Below, in pieces: positions 28,288 through 51,248 of a stretch of 64,000 nucleotides of DNA. A model generated the notes under the pieces. The model saw nothing but the letters and a program-made list of their open reading frames with translations, was not told the origin of the DNA and did no database searches. The position numbers and the translations under genes are program-made. Source of the DNA: an uncultured Caulobacteraceae bacterium (GTDB lineage: Bacteria > Pseudomonadota > Alphaproteobacteria > Caulobacterales > Aquidulcibacteraceae); NCBI GenBank assembly GCA_902826145.1, contig CADEDT010000004.1, forward strand, positions 5,905 through 69,904, in the 5' to 3' direction. Every line of letters starts with the position of its first letter. The stretch's first letter is position 1.

Positions 28288-29274
28288 TCAGCGCCGGAGC
28301 GGCTCCGTCTTCGCGAGAGAAAGCTCAGCCCAGCGCCGCGTGGCGCTCTGTAGCAAGGTCGGCGCGATTTGCTTGTGCTCTTCAATCAAGCGGTGGCGCA
28401 ACGCGGAGAGCGCGAGATGCTCGCGGCATGCGCCAGGCTCAGCACTTGCCAGCATGTGCATGTCGTTGAGTCTGCCGAGATCGCCTTGCAGGCGCTTAAG
28501 AATGCCGACCATTGTCGCGGCACTCTCATCGTAGCCAATGGACAATTCAGCGCTATAGCGCAACGCCTTCATTTGTTTTCGCAGATCGTGACGATCGATA
28601 TCCGCCAGCAAGCGCAGATCATCACCGTAGCCCACCGCTCGTTCCCTCAGTCCCAGCAGCGCCTTCTGAAGGAGCACGCCAGCCGAGCCCGCGCGGCGCA
28701 TACGTTTTTCTCTGGTGCGCCACTCACCACTTCTCGATTGAAGGATCAGGTCATTCGCAAACGCCGTTGCGCGCGCGGCGCTCAGGCTGGCGCGAACTTT
28801 GCCGCGAACCTCTTCACGCCAAACCTCCGCGGCGCGCATCGGCGCCACATCGAGGCCGAGGGCTGGCCGAAACATCTCTTCGACGATCACATCTGCATCG
28901 CGCAGCTCGCCCACGATCGCGCCGACGTAACGGGCAACCCAAGCCATACGCTTGGCCTCGGCGCGGCGGATTGCTGGTTTGAAGATGCGCAACGTCGTGC
29001 GCAGTCTGCGCAAGGTGACACGCAGTTGATGCGCCCCCTCTGGGTCCGTCTCGGTGAGAACACAACGCAGATTCTCAGCGATCACAGCGGCGTAGTGAGC
29101 CAGCACGAACCCAAACGCCTCGTGCGCGGAAACGTCCGCGCTGAGTGCAATCGGATCGGGACGAACCGGCGCGGCGCCGCGCAGGGCGTGGCCGCCAGCG
29201 ATTTGCAGCGCCGGCGCAATGCCTGCGTCGCGCGCGGAAACGCGCTTCGCGACCAACCGATCCCCTTCCCACAT
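28288..29274 (-). CDS. CHAD domain protein
   Basis: PEGAHQLRVTLRRLR, LRDADV, RHDLRKQMKALRYSAE, LQGDLGRLND. Confidence 0.88.
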   Translation of the reverse strand: MWEGDRLVAKRVSARDAGIAPALQIAGGHALRGAAPVRPDPIALSADVSAHEAFGFVLAHYAAVIAENLRCVLTETDPEGAHQLRVTLRRLRTTLRIFKPAIRRAEAKRMAWVARYVGAIVGELRDADVIVEEMFRPALGLDVAPMRAAEVWREEVRGKVRASLSAARATAFANDLILQSRSGEWRTREKRMRRAGSAGVLLQKALLGLRERAVGYGDDLRLLADIDRHDLRKQMKALRYSAELSIGYDESAATMVGILKRLQGDLGRLNDMHMLASAEPGACREHLALSALRHRLIEEHKQIAPTLLQSATRRWAELSLAKTEPLRR

Positions 29275-29426
29275 GAGTCTCAGCCTAGGATGAGCATTCG
29301 GACGTTTCCAGGCGAGAGCGGCGTTTCACCGTCACGCGACCGTCATAAAACGGAGACGAAAGTGCGTTTTCCACAGGATTCATCGAAAGGCCGCATCCCA
29401 GCTGTCTGGCATCACCAGCGCGCACA

Positions 29427-31019
29427 TTGAACGCCCCTATCCGCAGGATCATAGAAATGCGGGCAGTGAAATGGGCGGCAAGATTGGCGCGCGAATTCGA
29501 AGTCAAACTGGAGATACCGGCGTCAACAGTAAGCAAGGTCATGCGCTTGCCGTGGCTGTGGGAGTTGGCGACGGGCGAGCTGCGCGCCTCGCGCATCGCT
29601 TCAACGTACTATGACACGCCGAAATACGCGCTCCGCGAGCGCGGTATCACGCTTCGTGTGCGACGCGTTGGCTCCGCTCGCCTTCAAACCATCAAAGCAC
29701 GTGTGGCCGGCGGCGCACTGCCGATCGAGCGCGACGAGTGGGAAGAAGAGATCGTCGGCGACGAGCCCGAGCTCAAGCTTGCCGCCGGCACGCCGCTTGA
29801 CGGGATCTCGCGGAAAAAGCTGCGCCGCCAGCTCCAGCCTTGCTTCGAAATACAAGTCGACCGCAGCGCCTTCCCCATCCAATCCGCTAACAGCGCAATC
29901 GAGGTGGCGATCGACCGCGCCAGCATAGTGGGACCCAACCCCACATCGTTCTGCGAAATCGAGCTTGAACTTAAACGCGGCGCCTCCTCCGAACTCGCAC
30001 GGGTTGCGCGCCGCATTGCCAGCGAAGTGCCGGCGGCCTTGGTGCTCTCGACCAAAGCAGATCGCGGTTTTGCACTGAGGAAGGATGAGCCGCCTGGCCC
30101 GTTCCACGCAGAACCGATTGCACTCGATCCGTCAGCGCGAGTCAGCGAAGCTTTCCAAGCGATTGGCTGGTCGTGCATGCGCCACTTCGTACTGAACCGC
30201 AGCGCAGTCGAGGCAGCGGACGTGGGTGCGGTGGCGGAGATGCGCATGGGCATTGAGCGTCTGCACGCTGCTATGGCGGCGTTTGCGCGCTTGCTCGATG
30301 GCCCTGAAACCGACGCCGTTGCGAGCGAACTAAAATGGCTATCAAGCGAACTGCGCCCAGCCCACGAACTCGACGTCTTTTTGCGCGAAACGCTGAGCGC
30401 GACTTGCCCCCACATCGCACCCGCCGCGTTTGATCTCCTGCGTACCGACGCTCAATCCCGCCTGGAGCGCGCGCTTGGCCAGGCGCGAAGCGCTGTAACG
30501 AGCGATCGCTGCCGGCAGCTCATTCTTCGAATCGCGCTTTGGTTGGTCGCGGCGGAATGGTCCGACAGCGGCGCCGAAGCGCGCGATGAGCCTAACCGCC
30601 GCATCGCGGGCTTCGCGGGGCGCGCAATTCAAGAGCAGACGCGGAACACGTTCCGCAATTTGCGTCGCTTTCCCGTTCTCAACGAAGCGGAACGCGACGA
30701 ACTCCGGCGCGGGCTAACGGAATTGCGGCATGCAGCGGATTTTTTCGCCGACGTGCTCCCTAGCACCGGTTCGCGCAAGAAGCGGTCCGGCTTACGGCTA
30801 TCTAGACTTCTCACTCACATGGGGCGCCTTCACGACATCGCGGTTCATGAGCGACTACATGACGAGTTCATGCGCTCTTGGACGGATGAAGCAGCGCCGG
30901 ACGCGCAAGCGGCACACAAGGCGTTCGCAATGGGTTTCGCGCTCGGCCAATTGCAGCAAGAAAAAGAGCAGCGGGAGGCGGCGATCCGTAAACTGAAGGG
31001 GCGCGCGGCCAAGCGCTAG
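29427..31019 (+). CDS. CYTH + CHAD domain protein (start uncertain, possibly TTG 29484)
   Basis: EFEVKLE, STYYDTP, LRVRR, QTIK, EIELELK, SKADRG-like TKADRGF; degenerate CHAD C-terminus. Confidence 0.87.
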   Translation: MNAPIRRIIEMRAVKWAARLAREFEVKLEIPASTVSKVMRLPWLWELATGELRASRIASTYYDTPKYALRERGITLRVRRVGSARLQTIKARVAGGALPIERDEWEEEIVGDEPELKLAAGTPLDGISRKKLRRQLQPCFEIQVDRSAFPIQSANSAIEVAIDRASIVGPNPTSFCEIELELKRGASSELARVARRIASEVPAALVLSTKADRGFALRKDEPPGPFHAEPIALDPSARVSEAFQAIGWSCMRHFVLNRSAVEAADVGAVAEMRMGIERLHAAMAAFARLLDGPETDAVASELKWLSSELRPAHELDVFLRETLSATCPHIAPAAFDLLRTDAQSRLERALGQARSAVTSDRCRQLILRIALWLVAAEWSDSGAEARDEPNRRIAGFAGRAIQEQTRNTFRNLRRFPVLNEAERDELRRGLTELRHAADFFADVLPSTGSRKKRSGLRLSRLLTHMGRLHDIAVHERLHDEFMRSWTDEAAPDAQAAHKAFAMGFALGQLQQEKEQREAAIRKLKGRAAKR

Positions 31020-32596
31020 TTCGCCTTCGACTGCTCATCCAGCCAAGCGAAAAATGTCGGCAAGCACGCCTTCAGCTCGTTTGGCATGTACTCGAAATTT
31101 CGACCGCGATCGATGATTTCCCAGAAGTCCTTATTCTCGACGGTCTCAAGTTGACGCTGGATGATGCTCAAGCGTTCCGCCGGCTCGTCGCGCATATCGC
31201 GGGCAATGGCGCGAGCGCGATCTTCCTGACCGCTGCTGATGTAGTACGCGGCGAGTTTCACCTGCGCTTTGCGAACACCCATCAGCGCCTTCTCCTGCCC
31301 CCGAACAAACGGTGGCCGGTCCAGCTCCAGGAAATCGGCAACGATGCTCTGCTCCGCTGGAGAGTTATGTTCATTGGCGTGCTGCGCCAGCGCCGCGAGA
31401 TCGTACGCCACGGTCTCAGTGATAAAGCTCAACTCCATATCGAAGCTGACGAGGCCGTAGTACCTCATGTGCTTCACGCCATCACTTGCTGCCTTGTGCT
31501 GACCCAACTCAATCATGGACTCTACCAATTTGCGGTATTGGTTCAGCACATTGTAGGCGGTTCGCACGTTGTGGGCATTCAAGGTGGAACGCAGATAAGA
31601 ATTGAGGAAACGATAGACTAGGTTGATCAGCTCAGGGTCGTTGGCCCTGGCGGCCGCCTCGCCGATATACCGCGTATCAATAGCGATCACGTAGTTGACG
31701 TCGCGCATCTCGCTGAGGGCTTCATTGTAGATGCTCAGATACTGACGCATCACCTTCCATTCGACCCAGGTACGCCGCGCTTCCAAGTCGCCCAACGACT
31801 CTTCGTCCATCGCGACGAAATCCGGATTTGACCTGATATCCGGACCGATCAGGAACCAGGCCTCGCTCGCTTGCGATTTCACCTTGAGATACTCGACTGC
31901 GAAATCCTTCAGCGCATCGACAGCGGAGCTGGCGATGATTTTGTCCCTGCCCGAGATCGAATTGTTGGTGATGTCCGTTAGTTCTTCGAGCGCAAAGAGC
32001 ATTTGCGCCTGCGCCTCGAAGCAATGGCGCTTGTCAGCTTTGAGCGCGCCTTCGCTGACACTTTGTATGGCGTCATGCCGAATGTGTTTGACGAGATTTT
32101 GCGGCTCAAGGAACCAAAACACGTAGCCAAAGTACGGCATCATTATCACTAGGCCGCCCGTAGTCAGGCAGAGCATCCCGACCAACGACAGTCGCGGCAT
32201 CCAGTCCGCGTGAATTGCTGAGGTCAACCAGACTGACGTGCCGCAGGTAATGACGTAGTACGCTGCGACGCGAATATTGACGCGATCGCGTAGAAACATG
32301 CGCGCAACGCCAGTGTACCGGTCGGCAGAGAGCTGAACGATAATGCTGACAATTGTGATGACGATCCCGAACACCGCCACGTTGATGCCGGCCAGCGTCG
32401 CAACGGCGTCAGTGTCGGGGTCGAACGAGAAATATCGCGAGAAGGGGCCGCGAAATTCGGCGGCACTTCCTGACTGCGTAAAATAGTGATCCGCCGCGTA
32501 GAGGATCCAGAACAAGATCAGCGCGGCCCACGCGAGGATCGCCGTTTGCATTGCAAACTTGCGAAACGTCTCGCGGCGATCGTTGATAGTGCTCAT
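31016..32596 (-). CDS. DUF2254-like predicted membrane protein
   Basis: N-terminal TM helices with ITIVSIIVQLSADRYT motif, then a long helical cytoplasmic domain. Confidence 0.65.
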   Translation of the reverse strand: MSTINDRRETFRKFAMQTAILAWAALILFWILYAADHYFTQSGSAAEFRGPFSRYFSFDPDTDAVATLAGINVAVFGIVITIVSIIVQLSADRYTGVARMFLRDRVNIRVAAYYVITCGTSVWLTSAIHADWMPRLSLVGMLCLTTGGLVIMMPYFGYVFWFLEPQNLVKHIRHDAIQSVSEGALKADKRHCFEAQAQMLFALEELTDITNNSISGRDKIIASSAVDALKDFAVEYLKVKSQASEAWFLIGPDIRSNPDFVAMDEESLGDLEARRTWVEWKVMRQYLSIYNEALSEMRDVNYVIAIDTRYIGEAAARANDPELINLVYRFLNSYLRSTLNAHNVRTAYNVLNQYRKLVESMIELGQHKAASDGVKHMRYYGLVSFDMELSFITETVAYDLAALAQHANEHNSPAEQSIVADFLELDRPPFVRGQEKALMGVRKAQVKLAAYYISSGQEDRARAIARDMRDEPAERLSIIQRQLETVENKDFWEIIDRGRNFEYMPNELKACLPTFFAWLDEQSKAN

Positions 32597-32679
32597 GTTG
32601 CCGGCGCACCGGCCAGCCGAACGGCCAGGCGCCTAGCAACGTAATTGAGCGCAATCAATCGCACTTGCGACCCTGAGCG

Positions 32680-33057
32680 TCAGATACCTTCGAGGCGTGA
32701 GCTTACGATGCCCGCGATGATAACCGCCGCGTAGCAAGCAAACATCAGCGCTGCGAACTCAGAACCGAGAGAGGGATCGAGGTTCGGAAACACGATGTGG
32801 AAGCTGTTGATCTCGTAGATGCCAACCAGAAGACCAGGCACCGCCATGATCGACGCCGCTTCGGCGCGATCGGTCTGAACGACGCGGAATATCTTCAGGA
32901 ACAGAAAGGTCACGATCAGCAAAGCGATGGGAAGCGTCATGAAGAGCCATGAGACGCCGCCGGCGCCTGCCGTGAACACCTGTTCGCCTACAAAGCGAAA
33001 CGCCAACGCAATTGCGATCCAGAGCACAAAGCCGAACGCCATCCAACGAACAATCAT
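32680..33057 (-). CDS. DUF5367-like small membrane protein
   Basis: Four hydrophobic segments; GFVLWIAIALAFRFVG, VFPNL. Confidence 0.6.
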   Translation of the reverse strand: MIVRWMAFGFVLWIAIALAFRFVGEQVFTAGAGGVSWLFMTLPIALLIVTFLFLKIFRVVQTDRAEAASIMAVPGLLVGIYEINSFHIVFPNLDPSLGSEFAALMFACYAAVIIAGIVSSRLEGI

Positions 33058-33823
33058 TACTTCCCCCTAAGGTTTGCGCGACGCGCACGTTAAGAGTTCC
33101 CCGCGGCCCGGGCAATGCCTGGCCGCGTTCTGCGCGAACGGATTAATCCGTTATATTTCAATAGGGAAGTTTGGTCACCCGGCTTTGCCAGAGGGTGCGC
33201 TCGTGCGGACAATTGTTGGCGCACCCAGGCGCAGCGTCCATTTATGGCGAACCGATCAACCTCGGCGACAAGCGGTTCTGGGCTGATCGTACGGGCCTCA
33301 CGGCGCCCAAGCCGGCATCGCCTCGCGGGCGGAAAGGATAAACAATTTTATCGGCCAGCATCATCGCCTCCACCTGAACGTGCATGACGCCAAACCATCC
33401 TTGCGCCGAGACCTTCGGCACGCTTGCTGACACGCCGAGTACAGCATCCAGTTTCGAGCGCCGCTCTCGAACAAGAGACACCTTGGGCTTGCGCACAATG
33501 ACGCGCCCAAAACCCATAGCGACGCGGCGATCAAACGGATGGCATCGTTGATGCGCACACCATGAATGTGCACTTCCCCGCGCTGGTCCATACCTCGGCG
33601 CTACAAACCATCACCGTTCAGCTCAGCAAGTTTGTTCGCGGTTGCAAGTACAAGCGTCGCAGATCTGAAGCATGCGTTACGGCCCAAGGCCGACCTAGCG
33701 GGTCTTGCCTCCCGAGCGCTCGCTTGAGCACGTTCGATCGCGACAGTTTCCCGCCGTTCGACAGCGCGCGCCTAGACCTGTACTCAATGTAAGCTAGTCG
33801 GCACGCGACGGCGGGGAGACGAA

Positions 33824-36232
33824 ATGGCCGGGGGCACGCACGCTGGTATCCGCCATATCGTGTATCTCATGCTGGAGAACCGGTCACTCGATAACGTGCT
33901 CGGCTGGCTATACGAGGACGGCTCGCCCAGACACGTGCTTCCGCCAGGCTCATCGCCTCACTTCGACGGGCTTCGCGCGGACCTGTTTGGTCGCGACGCG
34001 AACGGAAACAAGCATCCCGTCATACGCGGCACGGGCGGACGCCACGCGGTTCCGCGCTTCGACCCCTACGAGACCTATGAGCACGTCAACTATCAGTTGT
34101 TTGGGACCGAGACGACGCCGGTCAAGCCACTGCATGACAAGCCCCCCGAGCCGAAGATGGACGGCTTCTACCGGGACTACGCCAAGTGGTATCGCAACAG
34201 CGACGAAATCATGATGAGCTACACACCGGAAGAACTTCCGGTGCTCAACACGCTGGCGCGCAGGTTTGCCGTTTCCGACAGATACTTCTCGTCGGTACCT
34301 ACACAAACAAACTGCAATCGCGCATTTGCTGCGGCCGGTAATTCGCTCGGCCTCGACAAGAGCGGCCAGCAAACCGCCTGGGTGAACAATCGCAATTCGA
34401 ACTGGCTGGCCAGACCGGGCGGCGTTCAATTCAGCGAGCGAACGTTGTGGAACGTGCTGGATGAACAAGGCCAGAACCAAGCCAGCGACTGGATGATCTT
34501 TCACAGCAAAGGGAACTGGCTGGAAAATCTCCTAGGCGCCGAGGGCTACCCATACACACGCCGGATCATGCAGCGATTGCAGGATCGCCGTTTCGACAAG
34601 CACTTTGCGGAGGTTGGATCTGCCAGCGGCGCGTCTGAGAGCACGTTGTTCGGAATGATCGAACGCGGAACGTTGCCAAGGTTCAGCTTTATTGAGCCCT
34701 CGTGGACTCTGCCTTTCGGGCCAGGGCTGGGCCCCAATGGCACGGACTATCACCCGCCTGGCGACATCCGGAAAGGTGAGCGTTTCCTAAAGCAGCTGTA
34801 CGAAGCACTCAGCAGCAAACCCGACATCTGGAATTCGCTGCTGCTCATCATCAATTTCGACGAGCACGGAGGCACCTACGATCACGTGCCACCGCCATGG
34901 ACTGCGACGCCACCCTGGCACGACACCGACGACACGCCGAAGCCAACATCTTTCGAGGGTGGCTTCCATTTCGATCGCTTCGGCGTGCGGGTGCCGCTCA
35001 TTCTAGTCTCGCCGTTTGTCCGCGAGAGCACGGTGTTTCGCGCTGAGGGTAACGTCCCGTTCGATCACACTTCGGTGCTTGCAACGATCCTTGAACTGAT
35101 GGGCGTGGAACGACATCACTGGCGCCTTGGCGCGCGTGTCAAACACGCCCCTTGTTTCAGCGACGTCCTATCCCAGCGCCGACGCGATGATATTCCCAAT
35201 CTTGAGGGCTCACCTGTGCAAGACGCGAACATGAGCAAACGTCTCTACGACGCCCTTCTCACCGACTACCCGGATCATCGATCCGGCACGAGACCCGTGC
35301 ACGCCATAGGCATCGGCGCGACCGGTTACTTCGTCGCCTCAGACGATGCCCGTCGATACACGCACGCCGAACAGTTTCAGGACGCGGTCACGCCTGTCAC
35401 AGTGCGGTTCTCCAATGGCTCTGGTTCACCGGTGGAGCACGACAGCGCGCTCGATGTGCGAGGGATGGCGGTGAAATTCCACCTTCGCGACGGTGGCGAG
35501 TCGGATCTCATCGCCATAACGCTCCCAATCTTCTTCGCGCAAAACCCGCAGGAATTTCTGCAGTTCGCAGCCGCCGGCGTGCCGGTCCCGGATAAGCCGG
35601 AAGGTTGGTTCAAACGCATGCTCGACATGCTGCAGTTGCGCGCGCCGCCGCGTCGGCCGGACCTTCCCGAAGACGGCACCGTTGGCGTCGTGCGCTATGC
35701 GAACACGCACATGGCTGCCAGGTCGGGCACGGTTGCCGCCACCATGCTCGTCACACCTGCAAGCTATGCACGCGCCGCCTACCACGCGCTGCATACGTTC
35801 AAACTCGTTGCCGCGGACGGCGCCGTCACTTTCTGCCGCTTCGATTGGGAGCCTGTGGCCGGCGTGATCCCGTTTCTTGAGAAGGGCGTGCACGACAAAT
35901 TTCTTCACGAAGAACTGCGCGAACGCATTAAACGCGGGCCAATTCGGTTCGTGCTTCGCATGAATGTCGCCGGCCAAGGCGATGACATCAACGACCCCAC
36001 AAAAGTGTGGGACACAACACGGCTGCGTGTCGTGCTGGGCGAGCTGTGGATCACGGCGCTCGCGGCCGAGAACGGCGCTGACTGTGAGCGCCTTAGTTTC
36101 AACCCAACACGCCTCGCGCTGGGCATCGAATGTTCAGATGACCCTGTGCTCGCCGCCCGACGCCAGGCCTACGAATACTCGTGCCGGCTTCGCGGCGGCA
36201 GTGGCTGTCCTGTGGGAGGGGATCAGTGGTGA
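33824..36232 (+). CDS. Fusion: phosphoesterase (PlcH/AcpA phospholipase C-acid phosphatase family) + catalase-like heme domain
   Basis: N-terminal: MLENRSLDN, YFSSVPTQTNCNR, DYHPP, NFDEHGGTYDHVPPP, GVRVPLILVSP, FDHTS. C-terminal: RPVHAIG, VRFSNG, DVRGMAVKF, RRQAYEYS. Single 802-aa ORF. Confidence 0.88.
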   Translation: MAGGTHAGIRHIVYLMLENRSLDNVLGWLYEDGSPRHVLPPGSSPHFDGLRADLFGRDANGNKHPVIRGTGGRHAVPRFDPYETYEHVNYQLFGTETTPVKPLHDKPPEPKMDGFYRDYAKWYRNSDEIMMSYTPEELPVLNTLARRFAVSDRYFSSVPTQTNCNRAFAAAGNSLGLDKSGQQTAWVNNRNSNWLARPGGVQFSERTLWNVLDEQGQNQASDWMIFHSKGNWLENLLGAEGYPYTRRIMQRLQDRRFDKHFAEVGSASGASESTLFGMIERGTLPRFSFIEPSWTLPFGPGLGPNGTDYHPPGDIRKGERFLKQLYEALSSKPDIWNSLLLIINFDEHGGTYDHVPPPWTATPPWHDTDDTPKPTSFEGGFHFDRFGVRVPLILVSPFVRESTVFRAEGNVPFDHTSVLATILELMGVERHHWRLGARVKHAPCFSDVLSQRRRDDIPNLEGSPVQDANMSKRLYDALLTDYPDHRSGTRPVHAIGIGATGYFVASDDARRYTHAEQFQDAVTPVTVRFSNGSGSPVEHDSALDVRGMAVKFHLRDGGESDLIAITLPIFFAQNPQEFLQFAAAGVPVPDKPEGWFKRMLDMLQLRAPPRRPDLPEDGTVGVVRYANTHMAARSGTVAATMLVTPASYARAAYHALHTFKLVAADGAVTFCRFDWEPVAGVIPFLEKGVHDKFLHEELRERIKRGPIRFVLRMNVAGQGDDINDPTKVWDTTRLRVVLGELWITALAAENGADCERLSFNPTRLALGIECSDDPVLAARRQAYEYSCRLRGGSGCPVGGDQW

Positions 36233-36870
36233 AAGGCTTTTTCCGGAGTATCTGGACGTTTCTGCAGCATCTGCTTGAGCGCATTCTTATTGCCTTTTGG
36301 CGCCGGGCTGCTCCCATAAAGGTCGCCGAACCGGGTTATTCGACGGTGCTGGCTGACAATCTGCAGATGCACATGAATCTTGTCATGCCGCTGGCAGATC
36401 AGACAGCCGTGGGCCGCGCACGAGCCGCACAAGCCATTGCAGCGAACATCGACGAATTGTTCACGGGCCTCAACAATGTTGGCACCGTGCACTTCGCGCG
36501 CTTCGATCTCATTGGCGGAAATCTCTGCATGTATTCCGTGTTTGACGGAGATTTCCGCGCATACATTCGCGACTTCATATGCGTGTTCGGCTCCGTCTTC
36601 GATTCCTTGCTTGGTCTCGTTGCGGATCCGCCACCCTCACCCTCCGCGCTCAATCCAGAGGCGTTCATCGACTGGATTCACCGCCACGATTCTTTCCAAA
36701 TCCCGCGAGATCTCACGTCGCTGTTTCCAGAGGAGAAGAACCTCGAAAACTTGTCGCGCGATTTGGTGCTCTTGCTCGATGAAAAGCCCAACGTGCAGCT
36801 TGGCCGCTTCAGCGGTTATCCCGGCGTATCGGTCGCTCAAATTCGTCATGGCGCCGGGTTGGGTTGGTGA
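36229..36870 (+). CDS. Uncharacterised protein of the type seen beside DyP/catalase-like genes (GTVHFARF motif)
   Basis: LNNVGTVHFARFDLI...SVFDGDFRAYIRDF; GTG start overlaps upstream stop and its stop overlaps the DyP ATG. Confidence 0.75.
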   Translation: MKGFFRSIWTFLQHLLERILIAFWRRAAPIKVAEPGYSTVLADNLQMHMNLVMPLADQTAVGRARAAQAIAANIDELFTGLNNVGTVHFARFDLIGGNLCMYSVFDGDFRAYIRDFICVFGSVFDSLLGLVADPPPSPSALNPEAFIDWIHRHDSFQIPRDLTSLFPEEKNLENLSRDLVLLLDEKPNVQLGRFSGYPGVSVAQIRHGAGLGW

Positions 36871-38309
36871 TGAGCAACAACCTCAACTTCGCCGACGTGC
36901 AGGGCAACATTCTGCGCGGCTACGGCAAACAATATGTCCGCCATCTTGTGCTCACCGTCGCCAACGCCAGCGCCGCGCGGCGCTGGCTGTCTGAGGCCAC
37001 CAGTGGTGACGAAAGCGCCGCGCCTCAGATCACCAACGCCGAGCCGTGGACCGAACGCCGCCGCACGTGCGTAAACGTGGGCATCACACGTGATGGTCTC
37101 GCGGCTTTTGGCGTGCCCGCTGCTTCACTCAACAGTTTCCCGCACGAGTTCGTAGCGGGCATGGCCGCACGTAACACGCTGCTCGGCGACACCGGCCCGA
37201 GCGACCCTTCGAAATGGAAGGAGGAGTGGAAAGGCGATGGCGTTCACCTGATGATCTCGGTGTACGCCGATGACGCACAGGACCGGACCGCCACCGCCGA
37301 TCGCATTCTCGCTGCCCGCGGCGCTTTTCACCTGCGTGCCGCACTCGACGGCGACGGCTTTCCTGGCGGCGTCGTTCACTTCGGCTACCGCGACAGCATC
37401 TCGCAGCCACAGTTTTACGGCGTGCACGATCCCGACCGCCGCCGCGATGACCAGCCCTTCGTCGAAATCGGCGCCATGCTTCTTGGTCACGCCACGCCGA
37501 TTGAGAACTTGCGTTGGGAAGTGCCGAAACCAAATGTGCTCGGTTACAACGGCTGCTTCAACGCGTTCCGCGTACTTGAGCAGCAAGTGGTTGAGTTCGA
37601 GGCGTTCCTTAGCGAATGCGCCGACGCGCTGATCAAAAATCCGCTGAGCGAAGTGGTGTTGCCGCCGGGAGAAGAAGCCAAATGGGATCCGCCGATGAGC
37701 CGCCATGCGGCTCTGCGCGAAGTGGTTGCAGCGAAGATGCTCGGCCGTTGGCGCAATGGCGTGCCTCTCGCTTTGTCGCCGATCACACCCTCGCCACAGC
37801 CGGCAATCACCGACGCAGGTCTCAACAATTATGGCTACTCGTCCGATCCCGATGGCCAGCGCTGCCCGATCGGCAGCCACATGCGCAGAAGCAATCCGCG
37901 CGACGCAAAAACGGTGCAACGCAATACAAACCATGCGCGCCGTCTTGTTCGACGCGGCATCCCTTACGGACCACAATACGACCCGGCCCATCCCGTGAAG
38001 GCCGAGCGCGGGCTGTTGGGTTCATTTATGTGCGCAAGCCTCACCGGACAGTTTGAGGCCATCCAATACGATTGGACCAATCTAGGCCTCCAGGATCCGC
38101 GCATCACCGGCTCAAACGATCCGATCCTTGGCAATAATGATCCGTTGTTCAGCCGGTTCTCTTTCCCGGTCGGAGACGGCATGGTCAAATTTCGCGGCTT
38201 TCCGCACTTCGTGCATACAAAAGGCGGCGCCTACCTCTTTCAGCCCAGTATGAGCGCCATTCGTCATCTCGCCACGCTCTCTGGCGGCGGGACCGTCAAC
38301 AGGCGATAG
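36870..38309 (+). CDS. Dye-decolorizing (DyP-type) heme peroxidase
   Basis: DVQGNILRGY, HFGYRDSISQP, NGCFNAFRVLEQ, GSHMRRSNPR, RRGIPYG, GGAYLFQPS. Confidence 0.92.
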   Translation: MSNNLNFADVQGNILRGYGKQYVRHLVLTVANASAARRWLSEATSGDESAAPQITNAEPWTERRRTCVNVGITRDGLAAFGVPAASLNSFPHEFVAGMAARNTLLGDTGPSDPSKWKEEWKGDGVHLMISVYADDAQDRTATADRILAARGAFHLRAALDGDGFPGGVVHFGYRDSISQPQFYGVHDPDRRRDDQPFVEIGAMLLGHATPIENLRWEVPKPNVLGYNGCFNAFRVLEQQVVEFEAFLSECADALIKNPLSEVVLPPGEEAKWDPPMSRHAALREVVAAKMLGRWRNGVPLALSPITPSPQPAITDAGLNNYGYSSDPDGQRCPIGSHMRRSNPRDAKTVQRNTNHARRLVRRGIPYGPQYDPAHPVKAERGLLGSFMCASLTGQFEAIQYDWTNLGLQDPRITGSNDPILGNNDPLFSRFSFPVGDGMVKFRGFPHFVHTKGGAYLFQPSMSAIRHLATLSGGGTVNRR

Positions 38310-38315
38310 AGACGA

Positions 38316-41300
38316 ATGCCAACTGAGCAACTCGCGATCCTGTTCACCGATCTCGTCGGCTCCACCGAACTGTCGCAGCAGCATGCTCCGGATGCCGCAG
38401 AGGATATTCGCCGTCAGCACACCGCCATTCTGCGCCAAGCCATCACCGAGCACGGCGGCACAGAGGTAAAAAATCTAGGCGACGGCGTGATGGTCGCATT
38501 CGGCTCCGCCTCTGCCGCCCTCCTCTGCGCGGTGGCGATGCAGCAGCGCGTGGATCTGGACAATCGACGCCAACAACGCGCAGGCGGGCTGCGGGTTGGC
38601 ATCAGCGCTGGCGAGGTCGTACGCGACGAGGACGACTATTTCGGCGACGCCGTCGTGGAGGCGGCACGCCTCTGTGGCCACTGCGAGGGCGGCCAAGTGC
38701 TTTTGGCCGAAGTGGTTCGCCTCATGGCGGGCCGACGCAACACCCACGAGTGCCGTCCCGTTGGCCCACTCACGTTGAAGGGGCTGAACACGCCCGTCGA
38801 CGTTATGGAGGTCATCTGGCCACGGCTGGAGCAGATTGGCGCCCCCTCACGCATTCCCCTGCCTGCCCGCGTTGAACGTCCAGCCTCAAACTTCGTTGGT
38901 CGCGGCGAAGAACTCAGCTTGATCGAGGCTGCCTTTGCGCGCGTGTCCTCTACGTCAGTTCGAGAATTCATCTTGGTCGGCGGCGAAGCGGGTCTGGGCA
39001 AGACCACGATGACGGCGCGCGCGGCGCGCGATGCATTCAACCGCGATGCAAACGTCTTGTTCGGCCATTGCGAGGAAGATCTCGTCACGCCGTACCAGCT
39101 CTTCGCCGAGACCTTGCGCCACTACGTGACACACGCGCCGGAAGATGAACTGCTAGCGCATGTCGTTGAGCACGGCTCCGAGCTCGTGCGGATCGTACCC
39201 GCGCTGGCGGGCCGCATTCCGGACTTACCGCCCACCAAGGCGACCGACGCCGACTCTGAGCGCTCTTTGCTTTTTGCGGCCGTTGTCGGCATGCTCGCGA
39301 CCGCGTCAAGCGCACGCCCGCTTGTACTGCTGCTTGACGACATTCAGTGGGCGGACAAAGGCAGCCTGCTTTTGCTCCGTCATCTTAGCACAATTGAGCG
39401 CCCCATGCGTCTCCTTGTGCTCGCCACTTATCGCGACAACGAACTCAGCATTCTATTGGACACGCTCGCGGCGCTGCATCGGCAAACTGGCGTCACGCGG
39501 ATCGACCTGAAAGGTCTCGACGACGGTGAAGTACTGCAGTGCGTGACGCTAATGGTCGGACGCGCCAAAGATGACGTAGCGCTTAGTCTCGCGAAAGCCG
39601 TGCACAGTGAAACAGATGGGAATGCGTTCTTCGTAACCGAACTGCTTCGGCATCTGACCGAGATTGGCGCCGTCTCTCAGGATGGACGCTGGATGGGCGC
39701 AGGCGGCGTCGACAAGCTTATCCTTCCAGACAGCTTGCGCGAGGTGATCGGCGCGAGGGTCGCGCGTCTCGGAGGCGAATGTGGGCGGGTGCTCGGTCTC
39801 GCAGCAGTCATCGGGCGCGATTTCGACTTTGATTTACTGGCGCGCGCGACTCAGATCCAAGAAGACACGCTCTTGGATGTGCTCGAAAACGCGGCGGACG
39901 CGGCGCTCATTGAAGAACTCGCCGACGGCGTCGGCCGCTATCACTTCGCCCACGGGCTCATTCAGCATGCGCTGTATGAAGAACTTGGCGCAACACGTCG
40001 CGCGAAGGCACACCGCACCGTCGCTGTGGCTTTGGATGAACTATGCGGCGCCCGCCCCGGCTTGCGCATCGGGGAACTCGCGCGCCACTGGTGTCACGCG
40101 CCGCAACGTGAAGATGCCCCCAAGGCCGTTGCTTACGCTTATCAAGCAGGCAGCGCGGCCCTAAGTTCGCTCGCCGCCGCCGACGCGATCGACTACTTCA
40201 CCGCCGCGAACAAGCTCATCGCGGCCCAGGGAATATCCGATGGCGCGATGGAGCTGGATCTCGCTATTGGCTTAGGCACGGCGCAACGCCAAACCGGGGA
40301 CCCCGCATCTCGCGACACGTTGCTGTCCGCAGGGAAACGCGCCGCCGAATTGGGCGATACCGAACGGCTCGTGCAAGCGGTACTCGCCAATGACCGCGGC
40401 TGGCACAGCACTACTGGCGGCGTGGATGCCGAGAAAATCGCGCTCTTGGAACTCGCACTCGAACGCCTCCCCGCCGGCGTATCAGACAGGGCGCTGGTCT
40501 TGGGCACGCTCTGCGCCGAACTTGCTTTTGGCAGCACCCTCGACCGCCGGCGCACCCTCGCAGAGGAGGCGCTGGCGATCGCCGAAGCGGAAGGCGACGA
40601 TTCAATCATCGTACGCACGCTGAACCATATGGCGTTCTCGCTGACTCTACCTTCGTTACTCGAGTCGTCATTGCAGTGGACGGCCGATGCACTCTCGCGC
40701 GCCGAGCGCCTTGGCGATCCTATGCAACTCTATTTTGCCGCCATGTACCGAGCGACCGCGGCCGTGCGCGCGATCGACATCGCCGAAGCGGACCGGTGTT
40801 ACGCCATCGCCGGCGACCTCGTGCGCCGACTCGGTCTTCCGCCGCTCAAGTGGGAGCACGGTTTCCATATGTCGAAGCGCGCGCAGCTAGCCGGCGATTT
40901 GGCGGAAGCCGAGCGGCTGGCAGGTGAAGCAGCAACAATCGGCGCAAGTTGCGGCCAGCCCGACGCGCAAACGTTCTTCGGCGTTCAACTCGCGTGCGTT
41001 AGCTGGATGCGAGGCACTATGGGTGACCTCGCGCCACTTCTCGAGATGATGATGCAAGCGAACCCCGGCCTACCCACGATCCGCGCTTCGCTTGCGATGG
41101 CCTTCGCGCAGGCCGAACGGCGCGAGGACGCCCTTCGTATTCTGGGAGAGTTCGCCGCCACTGGCTATTTCTTGCCGGAGGACGCGGCGTGGCTCAACGG
41201 CATGACCGAGTATGCCGACGCAGCTATAAATTGCGCAGACACCAATACCGCTCCGGCGCTCTATGATTTGCTTTCACCTTGGGCGAGGCACTTCTCCGCC

Positions 41301-41603
41301 GCGGGTGGACTGACCGCCGAAGGCCCAGTTTGCCTCTACCTAGGCGGCCTAGCGACCGTGCTGGGCCGTTTCGAAGACGCCGATCAGCACCTCTCACTAG
41401 CCGCCGAGGTGTGCGACAGGCACGCCATGAAATACTTCGCCGCGCTTACGGGCTTGCGTCGCGGTGAACTCATGCTTCTACGCGGGCGGAAGGATGACGT
41501 GAGCGCGGCGCAAACGCTGCTGGCCAAGGCAAACGAAGCGGCCGCCATCCACGGTTACGGCGCCGTTGGCCGGAAGGCCACTTCGGCCCTGTCACGCAAG
41601 TGA
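38316..41603 (+). CDS. Class III adenylate cyclase + STAND (AAA_16-like) NTPase + helical/TPR-like sensor region
   Basis: LFTDLVGST, KNLGDG, DYFGDAVVEAARL; Walker A GEAGLGKTT; Walker B LLLDDIQWAD; GNAFFVTELL; Ala-rich helical C-terminus without an obvious HTH. Confidence 0.9.
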   Translation: MPTEQLAILFTDLVGSTELSQQHAPDAAEDIRRQHTAILRQAITEHGGTEVKNLGDGVMVAFGSASAALLCAVAMQQRVDLDNRRQQRAGGLRVGISAGEVVRDEDDYFGDAVVEAARLCGHCEGGQVLLAEVVRLMAGRRNTHECRPVGPLTLKGLNTPVDVMEVIWPRLEQIGAPSRIPLPARVERPASNFVGRGEELSLIEAAFARVSSTSVREFILVGGEAGLGKTTMTARAARDAFNRDANVLFGHCEEDLVTPYQLFAETLRHYVTHAPEDELLAHVVEHGSELVRIVPALAGRIPDLPPTKATDADSERSLLFAAVVGMLATASSARPLVLLLDDIQWADKGSLLLLRHLSTIERPMRLLVLATYRDNELSILLDTLAALHRQTGVTRIDLKGLDDGEVLQCVTLMVGRAKDDVALSLAKAVHSETDGNAFFVTELLRHLTEIGAVSQDGRWMGAGGVDKLILPDSLREVIGARVARLGGECGRVLGLAAVIGRDFDFDLLARATQIQEDTLLDVLENAADAALIEELADGVGRYHFAHGLIQHALYEELGATRRAKAHRTVAVALDELCGARPGLRIGELARHWCHAPQREDAPKAVAYAYQAGSAALSSLAAADAIDYFTAANKLIAAQGISDGAMELDLAIGLGTAQRQTGDPASRDTLLSAGKRAAELGDTERLVQAVLANDRGWHSTTGGVDAEKIALLELALERLPAGVSDRALVLGTLCAELAFGSTLDRRRTLAEEALAIAEAEGDDSIIVRTLNHMAFSLTLPSLLESSLQWTADALSRAERLGDPMQLYFAAMYRATAAVRAIDIAEADRCYAIAGDLVRRLGLPPLKWEHGFHMSKRAQLAGDLAEAERLAGEAATIGASCGQPDAQTFFGVQLACVSWMRGTMGDLAPLLEMMMQANPGLPTIRASLAMAFAQAERREDALRILGEFAATGYFLPEDAAWLNGMTEYADAAINCADTNTAPALYDLLSPWARHFSAAGGLTAEGPVCLYLGGLATVLGRFEDADQHLSLAAEVCDRHAMKYFAALTGLRRGELMLLRGRKDDVSAAQTLLAKANEAAAIHGYGAVGRKATSALSRK

Positions 41604-41638: not shown

Positions 41639-41683
41639 TGGTGGTGGCGGGTGGACTTGAACCACCTACCTTGGGGTTATGAA
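41639..41683 (-). pseudogene. 3'-half tRNA(CAU) fragment, att site of the integrated element
   Basis: Minus strand TTCATAA-CCCCA-AGGTA-GGTGG-TTCAAGT-CCACC-CGCCACC-ACCA: anticodon loop, T arm, acceptor 3' strand and CCA. Upstream GCGCT cannot pair with CCCCA and no D arm is present. Confidence 0.85.
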
Positions 41684-41830: not shown

Positions 41831-43315
41831 ATGCGTAAGCCCCGGGTCACGCTGATCGATCTTTCCCGAGAGGGCGAGGCCGAGCACCACTTCGTTCTCA
41901 GCTACCGTGAAAGGGACGATGGCCGGCGCTCCACCTGGGTTTGTCGGCTGCTGCTCCCAAAGGGAGAACGTTCGTCTGGGTGGCCGTACCTGACCCGCAG
42001 CCTCCAAACCACAGACGCCACAGTAGCGCGGGAGCGCGCATTCGCGTGGCGACGACAACAAGATGCGATGGAAGCTGCACAGCGAACCGCCCTGATACCG
42101 ACTTTTCAAAGTGTATCCGAAGCTTGGCTTGAGCACATCGAAACAGAGCGAACGTTGGCCCTCGAATTGGGTGAGAAGGCGCTCGGCATTGATCAGTTTC
42201 GTCGTTACCGCACGAGCGTTCGCAGATACCTCCAGCCGTTCTTCGGCGCGTTGCCCATAAACGGCATCAGCAAGAAGAAAACGGACGGCTACGGCGAATG
42301 GCGTCGTTCGTTCTATACCCGTGGACCCGGGAAAGAAGAGAGCGAGATTGCTTACCGGCGCGGCGACAAGACCGTAGCGAGACCAACCCGGAAGACGACT
42401 CAGCCAGCACGATCAACGGTCGTCAAGGACGCGGAGGTCTTCAACAAGATCATTGTGTACGCGATCAGCGTTCACGACGATCTGGAGTGGCTCGGAAAGC
42501 CCTCACTCGAAGGCGTGGCGGTTGGCAGCCGGCCCCCTGCCCGACGACCGCGCTTTGAACACGATCATGTTCGTGCTGTCTTGAAGTTCGCCCAACAGCG
42601 AGCGTTTACGGACAAGCTCAAGAAGCGCCCGGGGCACGCCTACGCGCGACAGATTCTACTGAGCTTAGTTCGCTTCCTCTGGTGCACGGGCGCCAGAACG
42701 TCGGAGGCGTTAGTCCTGCGGATTGGCGACATCAAGGTCGCCAACGCAACTGCCGATGCGCGAATTCCAGCGATCGGTCGCCTTCACCCGACTTTCAAGG
42801 GCGACTGGACCGCCCCTGATCTCGATCATCCAGATGTGGATTGGGCGAACGCAATGTTCGAATACGAAATCCATTTCCCCGCGATCAAGCACGTCTCGCA
42901 TGAACGAAACGCAACTCCCCGCCAAGAATTCGAAGATTGGTACATGTGGCACGGGAAAATTCTTGGCTCCCGCTTCGGCGCCGACTGGCTCCACAAGATC
43001 GACTCGGACCTGTTGCTGTTTCCAGACTGGAACGGCAAGCGCCTAACCACCGTGGACGACAATCACGACAGCCTACTTGAAAGCTGCAAGACGAAGAAGT
43101 GGCCGGACGGCTTGCTGCACATCAACGGCAAGAAGATGAGCCTTTCGTCGTGGCGCCATACGTACGCATCCGAGATGATCGAAGCGTTCGCCAAGAGCAA
43201 GCGGCCCAACATGATCCGCTTTCTAGCAAGTAACATGGGCACGAGCGAAGCGATGATCGAGCAGCACTACGGGCAAATTCTCCCGGCTTTCGCCAAAGAC
43301 GAGCTTCGCATCTAG
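41831..43315 (+). CDS. Tyrosine recombinase/integrase
   Basis: TGARTSEALVLRIGD (box I Arg), LSSWRHTYAS, LASNMGTSEAMIEQHY (catalytic Tyr). Confidence 0.9.
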   Translation: MRKPRVTLIDLSREGEAEHHFVLSYRERDDGRRSTWVCRLLLPKGERSSGWPYLTRSLQTTDATVARERAFAWRRQQDAMEAAQRTALIPTFQSVSEAWLEHIETERTLALELGEKALGIDQFRRYRTSVRRYLQPFFGALPINGISKKKTDGYGEWRRSFYTRGPGKEESEIAYRRGDKTVARPTRKTTQPARSTVVKDAEVFNKIIVYAISVHDDLEWLGKPSLEGVAVGSRPPARRPRFEHDHVRAVLKFAQQRAFTDKLKKRPGHAYARQILLSLVRFLWCTGARTSEALVLRIGDIKVANATADARIPAIGRLHPTFKGDWTAPDLDHPDVDWANAMFEYEIHFPAIKHVSHERNATPRQEFEDWYMWHGKILGSRFGADWLHKIDSDLLLFPDWNGKRLTTVDDNHDSLLESCKTKKWPDGLLHINGKKMSLSSWRHTYASEMIEAFAKSKRPNMIRFLASNMGTSEAMIEQHYGQILPAFAKDELRI

Positions 43316-50663: not shown

Positions 50664-51248
50664 CTAGGCCGCCACTGTCTCTTCCTTGGCTTCCAGGATG
50701 CGATAAACGGACGCGCGGCTGACGCCCGTCCGGCGGACGATCTCGGCCACGCCGTGCCCCTCAGCCTTCAGGGCGCGGACCTGAGACGCCTTCGCCTGGG
50801 CGGTAGGCGCCCTGCCCCGGTACTTTCCCTCGGCTTTCGCCTTGGCGATTCCGTAGCGCTGGCGTTCGAGCATCCATTCGCGCTCGGCCTGACAGATAGA
50901 TGCGGTCAGCGATAGCAACAGCCGGCCCGTCGGTGTGGACGTATCGAGGTCCATGTTGAGGATGCGGACCGTGACACCGCGCTTCGTAAGATCATCGACG
51001 ATGTTCAGGAGGTCGATGGTGTTGCGGGCCAGACGATCGGCTGCGGTGACGCAGAAGACATCGTGCTCGCGAACGTAGGCCAGGGCTTCGGCCAGCTTCG
51101 GGCGCACGGTGCTAACGCTTGAAACGTGCTCCGAGAAAATCTTGGTGGCGCCGGCGGCTTTCAGTTGGGCGATCTGGGCTTCGAGGCCCGCGCGTTGCTC
51201 CAGGGTTGAAGTACGTGCGTACGCGATGACGGCGCCGGTTGGGTTCAT
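50664..51248 (-). CDS. Small serine recombinase (resolvase/invertase) with C-terminal HTH
   Basis: IAYARTST.EQ (catalytic Ser), DRLARN, TPTGRL, ERQRYGI..AKAEGKYRGR, GVSRASVYR. Confidence 0.96.
   Translation of the reverse strand: MNPTGAVIAYARTSTLEQRAGLEAQIAQLKAAGATKIFSEHVSSVSTVRPKLAEALAYVREHDVFCVTAADRLARNTIDLLNIVDDLTKRGVTVRILNMDLDTSTPTGRLLLSLTASICQAEREWMLERQRYGIAKAKAEGKYRGRAPTAQAKASQVRALKAEGHGVAEIVRRTGVSRASVYRILEAKEETVAA

Follow-up and report, generated by a model that had tools for sequence, protein, structure and literature searches.

The window analysed here is a 64,000-nt stretch of contig CADEDT010000004.1 (contig C4) from a 3.6 Mb assembly in 270 contigs, which is 92% complete and belongs to a Terricaulis-like member of the Caulobacterales. 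Between 33.7 and 41.6 kb it carries a block of four genes, encoding a fusion of a phospholipase C (PLC) with a mini-catalase (gene 1), a small partner protein (SP, gene 2), a DyP peroxidase (gene 3) and a cyclase-STAND sensor (gene 4). The combination is not a chance one, as its parts were found together far above expectation, and mini-catalase, SP and a class V DyP form a constant trio that spans at least four phyla, with SP being the most diagnostic and novel part of the module. The cassette probably represents a system for lipid oxidation and signalling that has not been described before. That the block is a self-contained mobile operon for a cytoplasmic lipid-oxidation module together with its own sensor is a reading for which we consider the chances evenly balanced.

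Co-occurrence of the module parts across genomes

SP was used as the probe for a census, in which relatives were located in 259 places among 185,579 species genomes and the best 80 loci were examined by tblastn. A DyP gene stands directly after SP in 79 of these loci, the exception being truncated by a contig end, and a mini-catalase match was obtained in all 80, co-oriented and immediately upstream in 59 and divergent in the other 21. Profile searches detected a cyclase and/or STAND gene within ~8 kb in 42 of the 46 loci with full flanks, its position varying between downstream, upstream, convergent and divergent. The gene contexts annotated with Pfam independently agree with the tblastn census. 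The carriers, most of which are metagenome-assembled genomes (MAGs), belong to the Alpha-, Beta- and Gammaproteobacteria, Acidimicrobiia, Solirubrobacterales and Acidobacteriota, with one cyanobacterial MAG, among the cultured carriers are several Variovorax strains and Bradyrhizobium sp. Tv2a-2, and a version with cytochrome P450 (P450) occurs in Leptothrix discophora.

The PLC was found in 17 of the 80 loci and is an accessory of particular lineages; in 16 of these loci it is fused, and in the remaining one, from a Solirubrobacterales MAG, it has a gene of its own that follows the STAND gene. An alpha/beta-hydrolase adjoins the DyP or the catalase in seven other loci, and the module has acquired a (phospho)lipid hydrolase several times, in unrelated forms (PLC, alpha/beta-hydrolase and patatin). 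Gene-neighbourhood co-occurrence had been set as a test beforehand in an earlier note on this DNA, and the parts do recur together across phyla. The four-gene unit described there stands in so far as it recurs, is cytoplasmic and is tied to lipid hydrolases and to cyclase-STAND proteins, but the PLC within it turned out to be an accessory and the cyclase to be dispensable in one lineage.

Fused forms of the same parts were also obtained. P0212 is a P450-SP-DyP fusion, the DyP part of which shares 38% identity with gene 3 along its entire length (E 5e-88), P0266 has the order SP-DyP-P450, P0210 is an SP-DyP fusion, P0234 and P0186 (WP_305749629.1, from Leptothrix discophora) are P450-SP fusions, and P0233 joins SP to P450 across a middle part without a DyP match. 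These Rosetta-stone fusions show that SP and this DyP subfamily act together physically and that P450 can replace the mini-catalase. In Leptothrix the genes lie in the order CRP-type regulator, cyclase-AAA_16-TPR, P450-SP, DyP-like and patatin phospholipase, and this locus is the same system made from different parts. The genome under study itself harbors a second, paralogous module on contig C8 (L111:4644-14090), listed in Table 1, where no SP domain was found in the N-terminus of the DyP-P450 fusion.

A separate observation concerns a Terriglobales locus (L097:7001-10565), which encodes a tandem-SP protein of 284 aa, then a DyP-like protein of 519 aa (DyP_N, E 1.5e-4) and a 369-aa protein without a family match. 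It represents a minimal SP-DyP pairing, with catalase, P450 and cyclase absent from the annotated neighbourhood.

Architecture of the four-gene block

Open reading frame (ORF) calls on the window gave four ORFs that fill 33824-41603, all on the plus strand, as shown in Table 1. Direct reading of the sequence revealed that genes 1 and 2 are joined by a GTGA overlap (36229-36232), genes 2 and 3 by a TGATG overlap (36868-36872), and genes 3 and 4 by TAG, six nucleotides and ATG (38307-38318), in agreement with the co-oriented genes, overlaps and 6-nt gap reported earlier. The overlaps point to translational coupling of the genes. The start of gene 2 was taken as the GTG at 36229, with another in-frame GTG at 36226, and a Shine-Dalgarno-like run, GGGAGGGG, lies upstream of this gene. 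A scan of 33733..33823 for the sigma-70 consensus gave no match.

None of the four proteins has room for a signal peptide, which bears out what had been noticed before, the domains beginning too near the N-termini. In gene 1 the ENRS motif is already reached at residue 18, in gene 3 residue 7 aligns with residue 4/7 of the crystallised DyP, and in gene 4 the cyclase domain begins at residue 3, so that no such peptide fits in front of them.

Table 1. Features of the cassette in the window (contig C4) and of the paralogous module on contig C8.
Feature	Contig	Coordinates	Strand	Evidence
Leader/promoter region travelling with the cassette	C4	33733..33823	+	blastn similarity of 17+3 relatives begins 33733-33848, never further left
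Gene 1, NPC-type phospholipase C/phosphoesterase + mini-catalase fusion, 802 aa	C4	33824..36232	+	PF04185 E 4e-58, PF00199 E 2e-37
PF04185 phosphoesterase (PLC) domain, residues 9-428	C4	33848..35107	+	Pfam
Mini-catalase haem domain, residues ~461-802	C4	35204..36229	+	Best PDB match 3e4w
Gene 2, small partner (SP), 213 aa	C4	36229..36870	+	No Pfam/NCBIfam/PADLOC match
Gene 3, cytoplasmic class V (C-type) DyP peroxidase, 479 aa from ATG	C4	36870..38309	+	DyP_N (Pfam), TIGR01413
Gene 4, class III cyclase - AAA_16 STAND NTPase - helical-repeat sensor, 1095 aa	C4	38316..41603	+	Pfam, TIGR03903
Cyclase catalytic domain, residues 3-156	C4	38322..38783	+	Guanylate_cyc (Pfam)
AAA_16 NTPase domain, residues 192-368	C4	38889..39419	+	Pfam E 1e-25
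tRNA-Met(CAT) 3' fragment, 45 nt, att-type repeat beside the cassette	C4	41639..41683	-	100% identity to G000:C35:2276-2320
Cyclase-AAA_16-TPR STAND	C8	4644-7583	+	Paralogous module
DyP-P450 fusion, 1215 aa	C8	7580-11227	-	Paralogous module
SP-like protein, 296 aa	C8	11239-12129	-	hhalign 96%, E 5e-9
PAS-LuxR regulator	C8	12171-13238	-	Paralogous module
CRP-type cNMP-binding regulator	C8	13203-14090	+	Paralogous module

The small partner

SP has no match in Pfam, NCBIfam or PADLOC. A sequence-profile comparison with the PDB gave noise only, hhalign against the DyP and catalase alignments detected no relationship, and tblastn against 72,556 plasmids yielded no match. A total of 480 close homologues were obtained, and a profile search of 1.84 billion representatives recovered 833 proteins at E<=1e-3, in which the SP core occurs alone, in tandem or fused. 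The mean column identity across phyla is 57%, and the invariant residues include His88, Arg91, Asp106/108, Tyr112, Arg114, Asp115, Trp149 and a C-terminal Gly-Trp.

The AlphaFold (AF2) model of SP is a confident one, with a pLDDT of 88. In a Foldseek search its core (~residues 47-128) weakly resembled ABM/dimeric alpha+beta-barrel proteins, namely MupZ, Rv0793, LsrG and polyketide cyclases, with the best match at E 6e-3 and TM values of 0.5-0.6 on the target. Such weak matches to a predicted structure place the general fold, not the function. SP is the founding member of a putative new ABM-like domain family.

The phospholipase C-mini-catalase fusion

The PLC half of gene 1 matched PF04185 with 197.8 bits against a gathering cut-off of 23, covering profile positions 1-355 of 356, and its best PDB match was the Arabidopsis NPC4 (8hav, E 9e-38). 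The motifs ENRS, T162-x-x-N-R with Thr162 as the nucleophile, DEHGGxxDH and GVRVP were all observed, and they are invariant in 16-17 of the 17 homologues (the fusions and one separate PLC), one row being gapped at ENRS. The catalytic meaning of ENRS, TxxNR, DEHGGxxDH and GxRVP is known from NPC, PlcH and AcpA. Gene 1 scored far under the NCBIfam equivalog cut-offs for PC-PLC and AcpA. About 30 protein clusters contain the PLC-mini-catalase fusion, all of them at least 71% identical to gene 1 and forming one clade in the Alpha- and Gammaproteobacteria, for which the best database name is 'phospholipase C'. The full-length fusion was found in 4 of the 25 genus genomes searched.

The mini-catalase half gave its best PDB match with 3e4w (MAP-2744c, E 3e-43). 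The distal His is kept in 73 of 74 relatives and the proximal Tyr in all 74, while the distal Asn is replaced by Thr in gene 1 and by Thr or Ser in 73 of the 74, so the residue making a catalase a catalase is missing and the haem ligands are intact. Mini-catalases of the MAP-2744c kind are recognised by a core of ~33 kDa with distal His and proximal Tyr, without the distal Asn and with 3E4W as the closest structure, and the domain matches this description. A true monofunctional catalase was considered and rejected, as the distal Asn is absent and the domain has ~340 residues, against an expected subunit of at least 55 kDa.

The nearest stand-alone relative of the PLC domain (L106:111-3452) is 58% identical, and the genes following it encode a membrane-like protein of 214 aa, a ydhR (ABM-like) protein and a lipid kinase (DAGK_cat/YegS). 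This nearby lipid kinase is the one hint, an indirect one, that the PLC domain may cleave off phospholipid head groups. The adjoining 214-aa protein was tried as a candidate SP and was rejected on testing.

The DyP peroxidase

The best PDB matches of gene 3 were 8re3 and 8re2, the DyP of Deinococcus radiodurans (DrDyP), with a full-length alignment at E 1e-56. The distal Asp, proximal His and distal Arg align with those of DrDyP and are conserved in 72-74 of the 74 relatives, whereas the fifth residue of the GXXDG motif is Ser instead of Gly. With its two ferredoxin-like domains and these three residues, gene 3 belongs to the class V (C/D) DyPs. At pH 7.5 DrDyP shows no activity with H2O2, and what it acts on in the cell is not known (PMC10820274); its gene, DR_A0145, adjoins that of the catalase-like DR_A0146, which shows no catalase activity (PMC6300522). 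Neither enzyme family member looks, therefore, like a plain scavenger of H2O2.

The cyclase-STAND sensor

The cyclase domain of gene 4 contains the metal-binding D12 and D56, Lys52, Asp107 and Arg118, and has Val114 at the position of the transition-state Asn. Among 44 relatives, both metal Asp residues are present in 40, the Lys in 29, the Asp in 34 and the Arg in 42. A complete class III adenylate cyclase was rejected as a description of gene 4 because of Val114; the protein likely still works like a cyclase, and its activity may be low or dependent on activation.

In the AAA_16 domain Walker A and B are intact, and the GKT and DD motifs are conserved in the relatives. Walker A and B followed by a long helical-repeat arm characterise gene 4 as a STAND NTPase, with TPR matches being seen in the sister cyclase-STAND proteins; gene 4 itself has a long helical C-terminal arm and neither a DNA-binding nor a kinase domain. 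TIGR03903 aligns to residues 26-910 (E 4e-44) with 151 bits against a family cut-off of 706.

In the Woeseiaceae-type cassettes (L029-L031 / L096:12092-14881) the STAND gene opens directly with AAA_16, the ~0.5-kb cyclase domain being gone. These cassettes also carry an extra 431-aa gene of unassigned function after the STAND gene.

Mobility of the cassette and its surroundings

The DNA similarity of 20 relatives, compared by blastn, starts at 33733-33848 and ends at 41383-41597 where the sequence of the relative reaches that edge, and similarity of the flanks to the window is absent in all 20, even within the genus. Since the similarity is confined to the four-gene block, the block moves as a cassette. 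In the tree of SP and DyP, which is rooted at its midpoint only, the PLC-fused rows make up one branch (SH-aLRT 100) nested among actinobacterial rows, and this branch unites Caulobacterales, Sphingomonadales and Woeseiaceae-type Gammaproteobacteria. Such a topology fits a single origin of the PLC fusion, which might then have been transferred between classes. A tRNA gene lies within a few kb upstream of the block in three relatives (L015, L021 and L027), at ~450 nt in L015 and L021.

ARAGORN and Rfam detected no tRNA within the window. Nonetheless, the tRNA att site noted before at 35 nt from the operon proved to be real, as 41639-41683 on the minus strand is identical over 45/45 nt to the 3' end of a complete tRNA-Met(CAT) carried by contig C35, from its anticodon loop to CCA, and it starts exactly 35 nt past the stop of gene 4 (41603). 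An integrase-like ORF follows 150 nt past the fragment (41831-43315) and is very divergent, matching phrog_1 at E 7e-8 and having no Pfam match. A copy of a tRNA 3' segment adjoining an integrase-like gene is the arrangement of a tRNA-targeted integrative element. The fragment would be the boundary of an integrated element situated to its right, and it adjoins the cassette without being part of it; the element was placed to the right of the att fragment because of the integrase, the G+C content and the polarity of the tRNA, the intact copy of which is on another contig. That location on contig C35 also suggests that the element right of the cassette is probably longer than 22 kb, its other end falling beyond the window. 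At 42-54 kb the G+C content is lower (0.57-0.59) and the ORFs are mostly without a family match. A second att copy was sought to the left of the cassette and not found, and a search for an 'empty site' in the genus showed only the DUF2254-DUF5367 pair (31036-33121) in common.

Other genes around the cassette were also observed. A gene of ~520 aa encoding TIR_2 and FGE-sulfatase lies on the same strand directly upstream of the PLC-catalase gene in seven loci (L096:5744-7312 and L024-L028, L030, L031; Sphingomonadales/Gammaproteobacteria); it accompanies the cassette in that branch and does not occur in the window. A serine recombinase/invertase is encoded at 50664-51248, inside the stretch of low G+C. 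Upstream of the DUF2254-DUF5367 pair, the window contains two adjacent, divergent CHAD-domain genes (28288-31019), one of them fused to a CYTH (triphosphate tunnel) domain; a link to polyphosphate is possible, and these genes are not linked to the cassette in the relatives.

Proposed function and alternative explanations

In the lipid-oxidation reading, the chances of which we consider evenly balanced, the NPC-type PLC domain, at the inner membrane face, would deliver diacylglycerol or oxidised phospholipid, and the peroxide-primed DyP with SP would oxygenate or oxidise that lipid, a step likened to the haem dioxygenases that use a peroxide-generated protein radical. In those enzymes ferryl haem formed by peroxide makes a protein radical, which abstracts an allylic hydrogen (PMC13049297). 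The mini-catalase, or the P450 in the sister systems, would convert the resulting organic hydroperoxide, as organic hydroperoxides are converted by the catalase-related lyase of Nostoc and by fungal P450 partners (PMC13049297). SP has a predicted fold common among cofactor-free oxygenases, isomerases and cyclases that handle reactive intermediates, and it might bind or rearrange an intermediate, or bridge the two haem enzymes. Binding of a substrate or product to the TPR-like sensor would let the STAND protein oligomerise via its NTPase and pair the N-terminal cyclase domains to produce cyclic AMP (cAMP), and a CRP-type regulator, for example the one beside the paralogous module on contig C8, would read the signal. 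As a more specific mechanism we put forward, tentatively and as a rather doubtful proposal, a route to a lipid mediator that is independent of lipoxygenase and cyclooxygenase and runs from PLC through DyP with SP to a hydroperoxide, which the mini-catalase or P450 would rearrange into a defined signalling lipid; this lipid would be the ligand of the STAND sensor, which would respond with cAMP.

Several points weigh against the lipid-oxidation reading. DyPs are peroxidases, and the oxygenase role assigned to gene 3 is drawn by analogy. Known oxylipin enzymes start from free fatty acid, whereas the product of a PLC is diacylglycerol, and polyunsaturated lipids are not a known feature of the carrier bacteria. 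Among the recurrent neighbours in the 80 loci, which were examined as clusters with annotation of a part of them, neither a lipoxygenase nor a haem dioxygenase family was prominent. The catalase domain had been likened earlier to coral allene oxide synthase (AOS), a likeness that failed at its hallmark: a Thr right before the distal His marks the catalase relatives that convert fatty-acid hydroperoxides (AOS/hydroperoxide lyase), and it is absent from gene 1, which has Val, and from the 74 relatives, which have Val (36), Ile (22) or Ala (16). None of the three enzymes has a cyclic nucleoside monophosphate (cNMP)-binding domain. In the cyclase, the transition-state Asn occurs in 10 of the 44 relatives and is missing in 34, and blastn revealed that the stretch 38290-38889 is precisely missing from the Woeseiaceae-type cassettes L029-L031; with the cyclase domain lost in one sublineage and the Asn absent in most members, an output of cAMP is not obligatory.

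Among the alternatives, repair of oxidative stress survives best, and we consider it unlikely. Here the mini-catalase and the DyP would reduce H2O2 and organic or lipid hydroperoxides, the PLC would clip damaged phospholipids and the STAND cyclase would report the stress. Both haem enzymes come from peroxide-using families, the residues for peroxide activation are conserved, and MAP-2744c (3e4w) is reportedly, from its structure paper, an organic-hydroperoxide-dependent peroxidase. However, the distal Asn is missing from the mini-catalase in 73 of 74 relatives, the sister systems have in its place a P450, which is not a detoxifying enzyme, and the system is a patchy, accessory cassette, the full-length fusion being restricted to 4 of the 25 genus genomes, while the strictly conserved SP would be left without a role. 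The inactivity of DrDyP toward H2O2 at neutral pH and the lack of catalase activity in its catalase-like neighbour in D. radiodurans also speak against stress repair (PMC10820274, PMC6300522).

A role in conflict or anti-phage defence, in which the STAND protein would sense an invader, the cyclase would raise a cyclic-nucleotide alarm, and the PLC and haem enzymes would damage the membrane or redox state in an abortive infection, appears to us rather improbable. The STAND architecture with an N-terminal enzymatic head, weak PycC-like matches to the cyclase, the cassette-like transfer between classes and phyla, the tRNA genes or att sites that neighbour the block in this genome, L015, L021 and L027, and the TIR-FGE-sulfatase gene directly upstream of the PLC-catalase gene in seven loci would all suit such a role, and lipases are common effectors of cyclic-nucleotide defence systems. 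PADLOC models, however, matched none of genes 1-3, and the PycC-like matches are at the level of the cyclase domain only, at E 2e-6 or weaker. No effector with a cyclic-nucleotide-binding, SAVED or CARF domain was found, one sublineage dropped the cyclase and retained the rest, conservation of the enzymes and SP between phyla is high, at a mean column identity of 57%, and CRP-type transcription factors flank the sister modules, pointing to gene regulation over cell suicide.

Handling of haem or iron, or another non-lipid oxidation such as the tailoring of an aromatic metabolite, with SP as an IsdG-like ABM protein that binds or degrades haem together with a deferrochelatase-like DyP and a haem-binding catalase relative, and with the PLC as an unrelated phosphoesterase, is very unlikely in our judgement, for although the ABM/dimeric alpha+beta-barrel fold of the SP core also contains haem-degrading enzymes and SP has the invariant His88, Tyr112 and Trp149, none of the genes recurring in the 80 loci is a transporter or regulator of iron or haem, three unrelated families of lipid hydrolases have been recruited to the module, and the weak fold matches of SP did not single out IsdG-type proteins. 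EfeB-type DyPs, which have been linked to the release of iron from haem, would also suit this explanation (PMC6300522).

Comparison with known systems

The mini-catalase MAP-2744c of Mycobacterium avium ssp. paratuberculosis (3E4W/3E4Y) has the same core of ~320-340 residues with the distal His, the proximal Tyr and no distal Asn, and stands alone, whereas the mini-catalase of gene 1 is fused to a PLC. NPC4 (8HAV) and PlcH/AcpA share the fold and catalytic motifs of gene 1, the plant enzymes likewise being without a signal peptide; they differ from gene 1, in which the PLC is fused to a haem domain. DrDyP is of the same class C/V, cytoplasmic, and also has a non-Gly fifth residue in GXXDG (PMC10820274), and its place beside the catalase-like DR_A0146 (PMC6300522) suggests the same pairing of DyP and catalase as in the cassette, though it was treated by its authors as an isolated enzyme (PMC10820274).

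The two-haem oxylipin synthases comprise the fungal dioxygenase-P450 fusions (Ppo/linoleate diol synthases), the coral fusion of a lipoxygenase with a catalase-related AOS, and the Nostoc 10S-dioxygenase with a separately encoded catalase-related hydroperoxide lyase. The cassette has in common with them a peroxide-primed haem enzyme fused or adjacent to a P450 or catalase-related transformer of hydroperoxides (PMC13049297), with lipases nearby, but its first enzyme is a DyP and not a cyclooxygenase-like dioxygenase or lipoxygenase, SP is obligatory, the lipase is a PLC and the Thr-His pair is lacking. In the TIGR03903 'TOMM system kinase/cyclase fusion protein' and the mycobacterial Rv0386-type cyclases, the cyclase, P-loop NTPase and helical repeats follow each other as in gene 4, which in contrast has no kinase and no LuxR-type DNA-binding domain, carries Val for the Asn and is tied to a defined set of enzymes. 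Pycsar and CBASS also couple a cyclase to a horizontally moving gene set that contains a phospholipase; in contrast to these, the cassette has no nucleotide-sensing effector, its PADLOC matches are weak and confined to the cyclase, and the cyclase is dispensable in one lineage.

Full-text literature searches found no description of this gene combination and nothing relevant on 'minicatalase', in line with the earlier note, which did not recognise it as a described system. The database names for the relatives are only 'hypothetical protein', 'phospholipase C' or 'cytochrome P450'. What is new here is the PLC-catalase fusion, the travelling of the four genes as one cassette, and the presence of two paralogous modules in one genome.

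Significance

Taken as a system, the module appears to be a pair of haem enzymes that work on lipid peroxides under a STAND cyclase, and at its centre is SP, a domain family not described before. The physiological substrates of DyPs and of bacterial mini-catalases are long-standing unknowns, and the cassette gives both families fixed genetic partners, namely a new conserved domain, lipid hydrolases and a ligand-gated cyclase, while the cultured carriers make the question experimentally tractable. No physical link seen so far ties the module more tightly to membrane phospholipids than the PLC-catalase fusion. If the lipid reading is true, two-haem oxylipin chemistry would have been invented independently for a third time in this system, and gene 4 would be a rare bacterial STAND cyclase whose input can be guessed from its operon. 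If the lipid-mediator route in particular is true, the cassette would constitute a complete mobile 'eicosanoid-like' cascade, which would provide a role for class V DyPs and mini-catalases and a new enzyme domain in SP.

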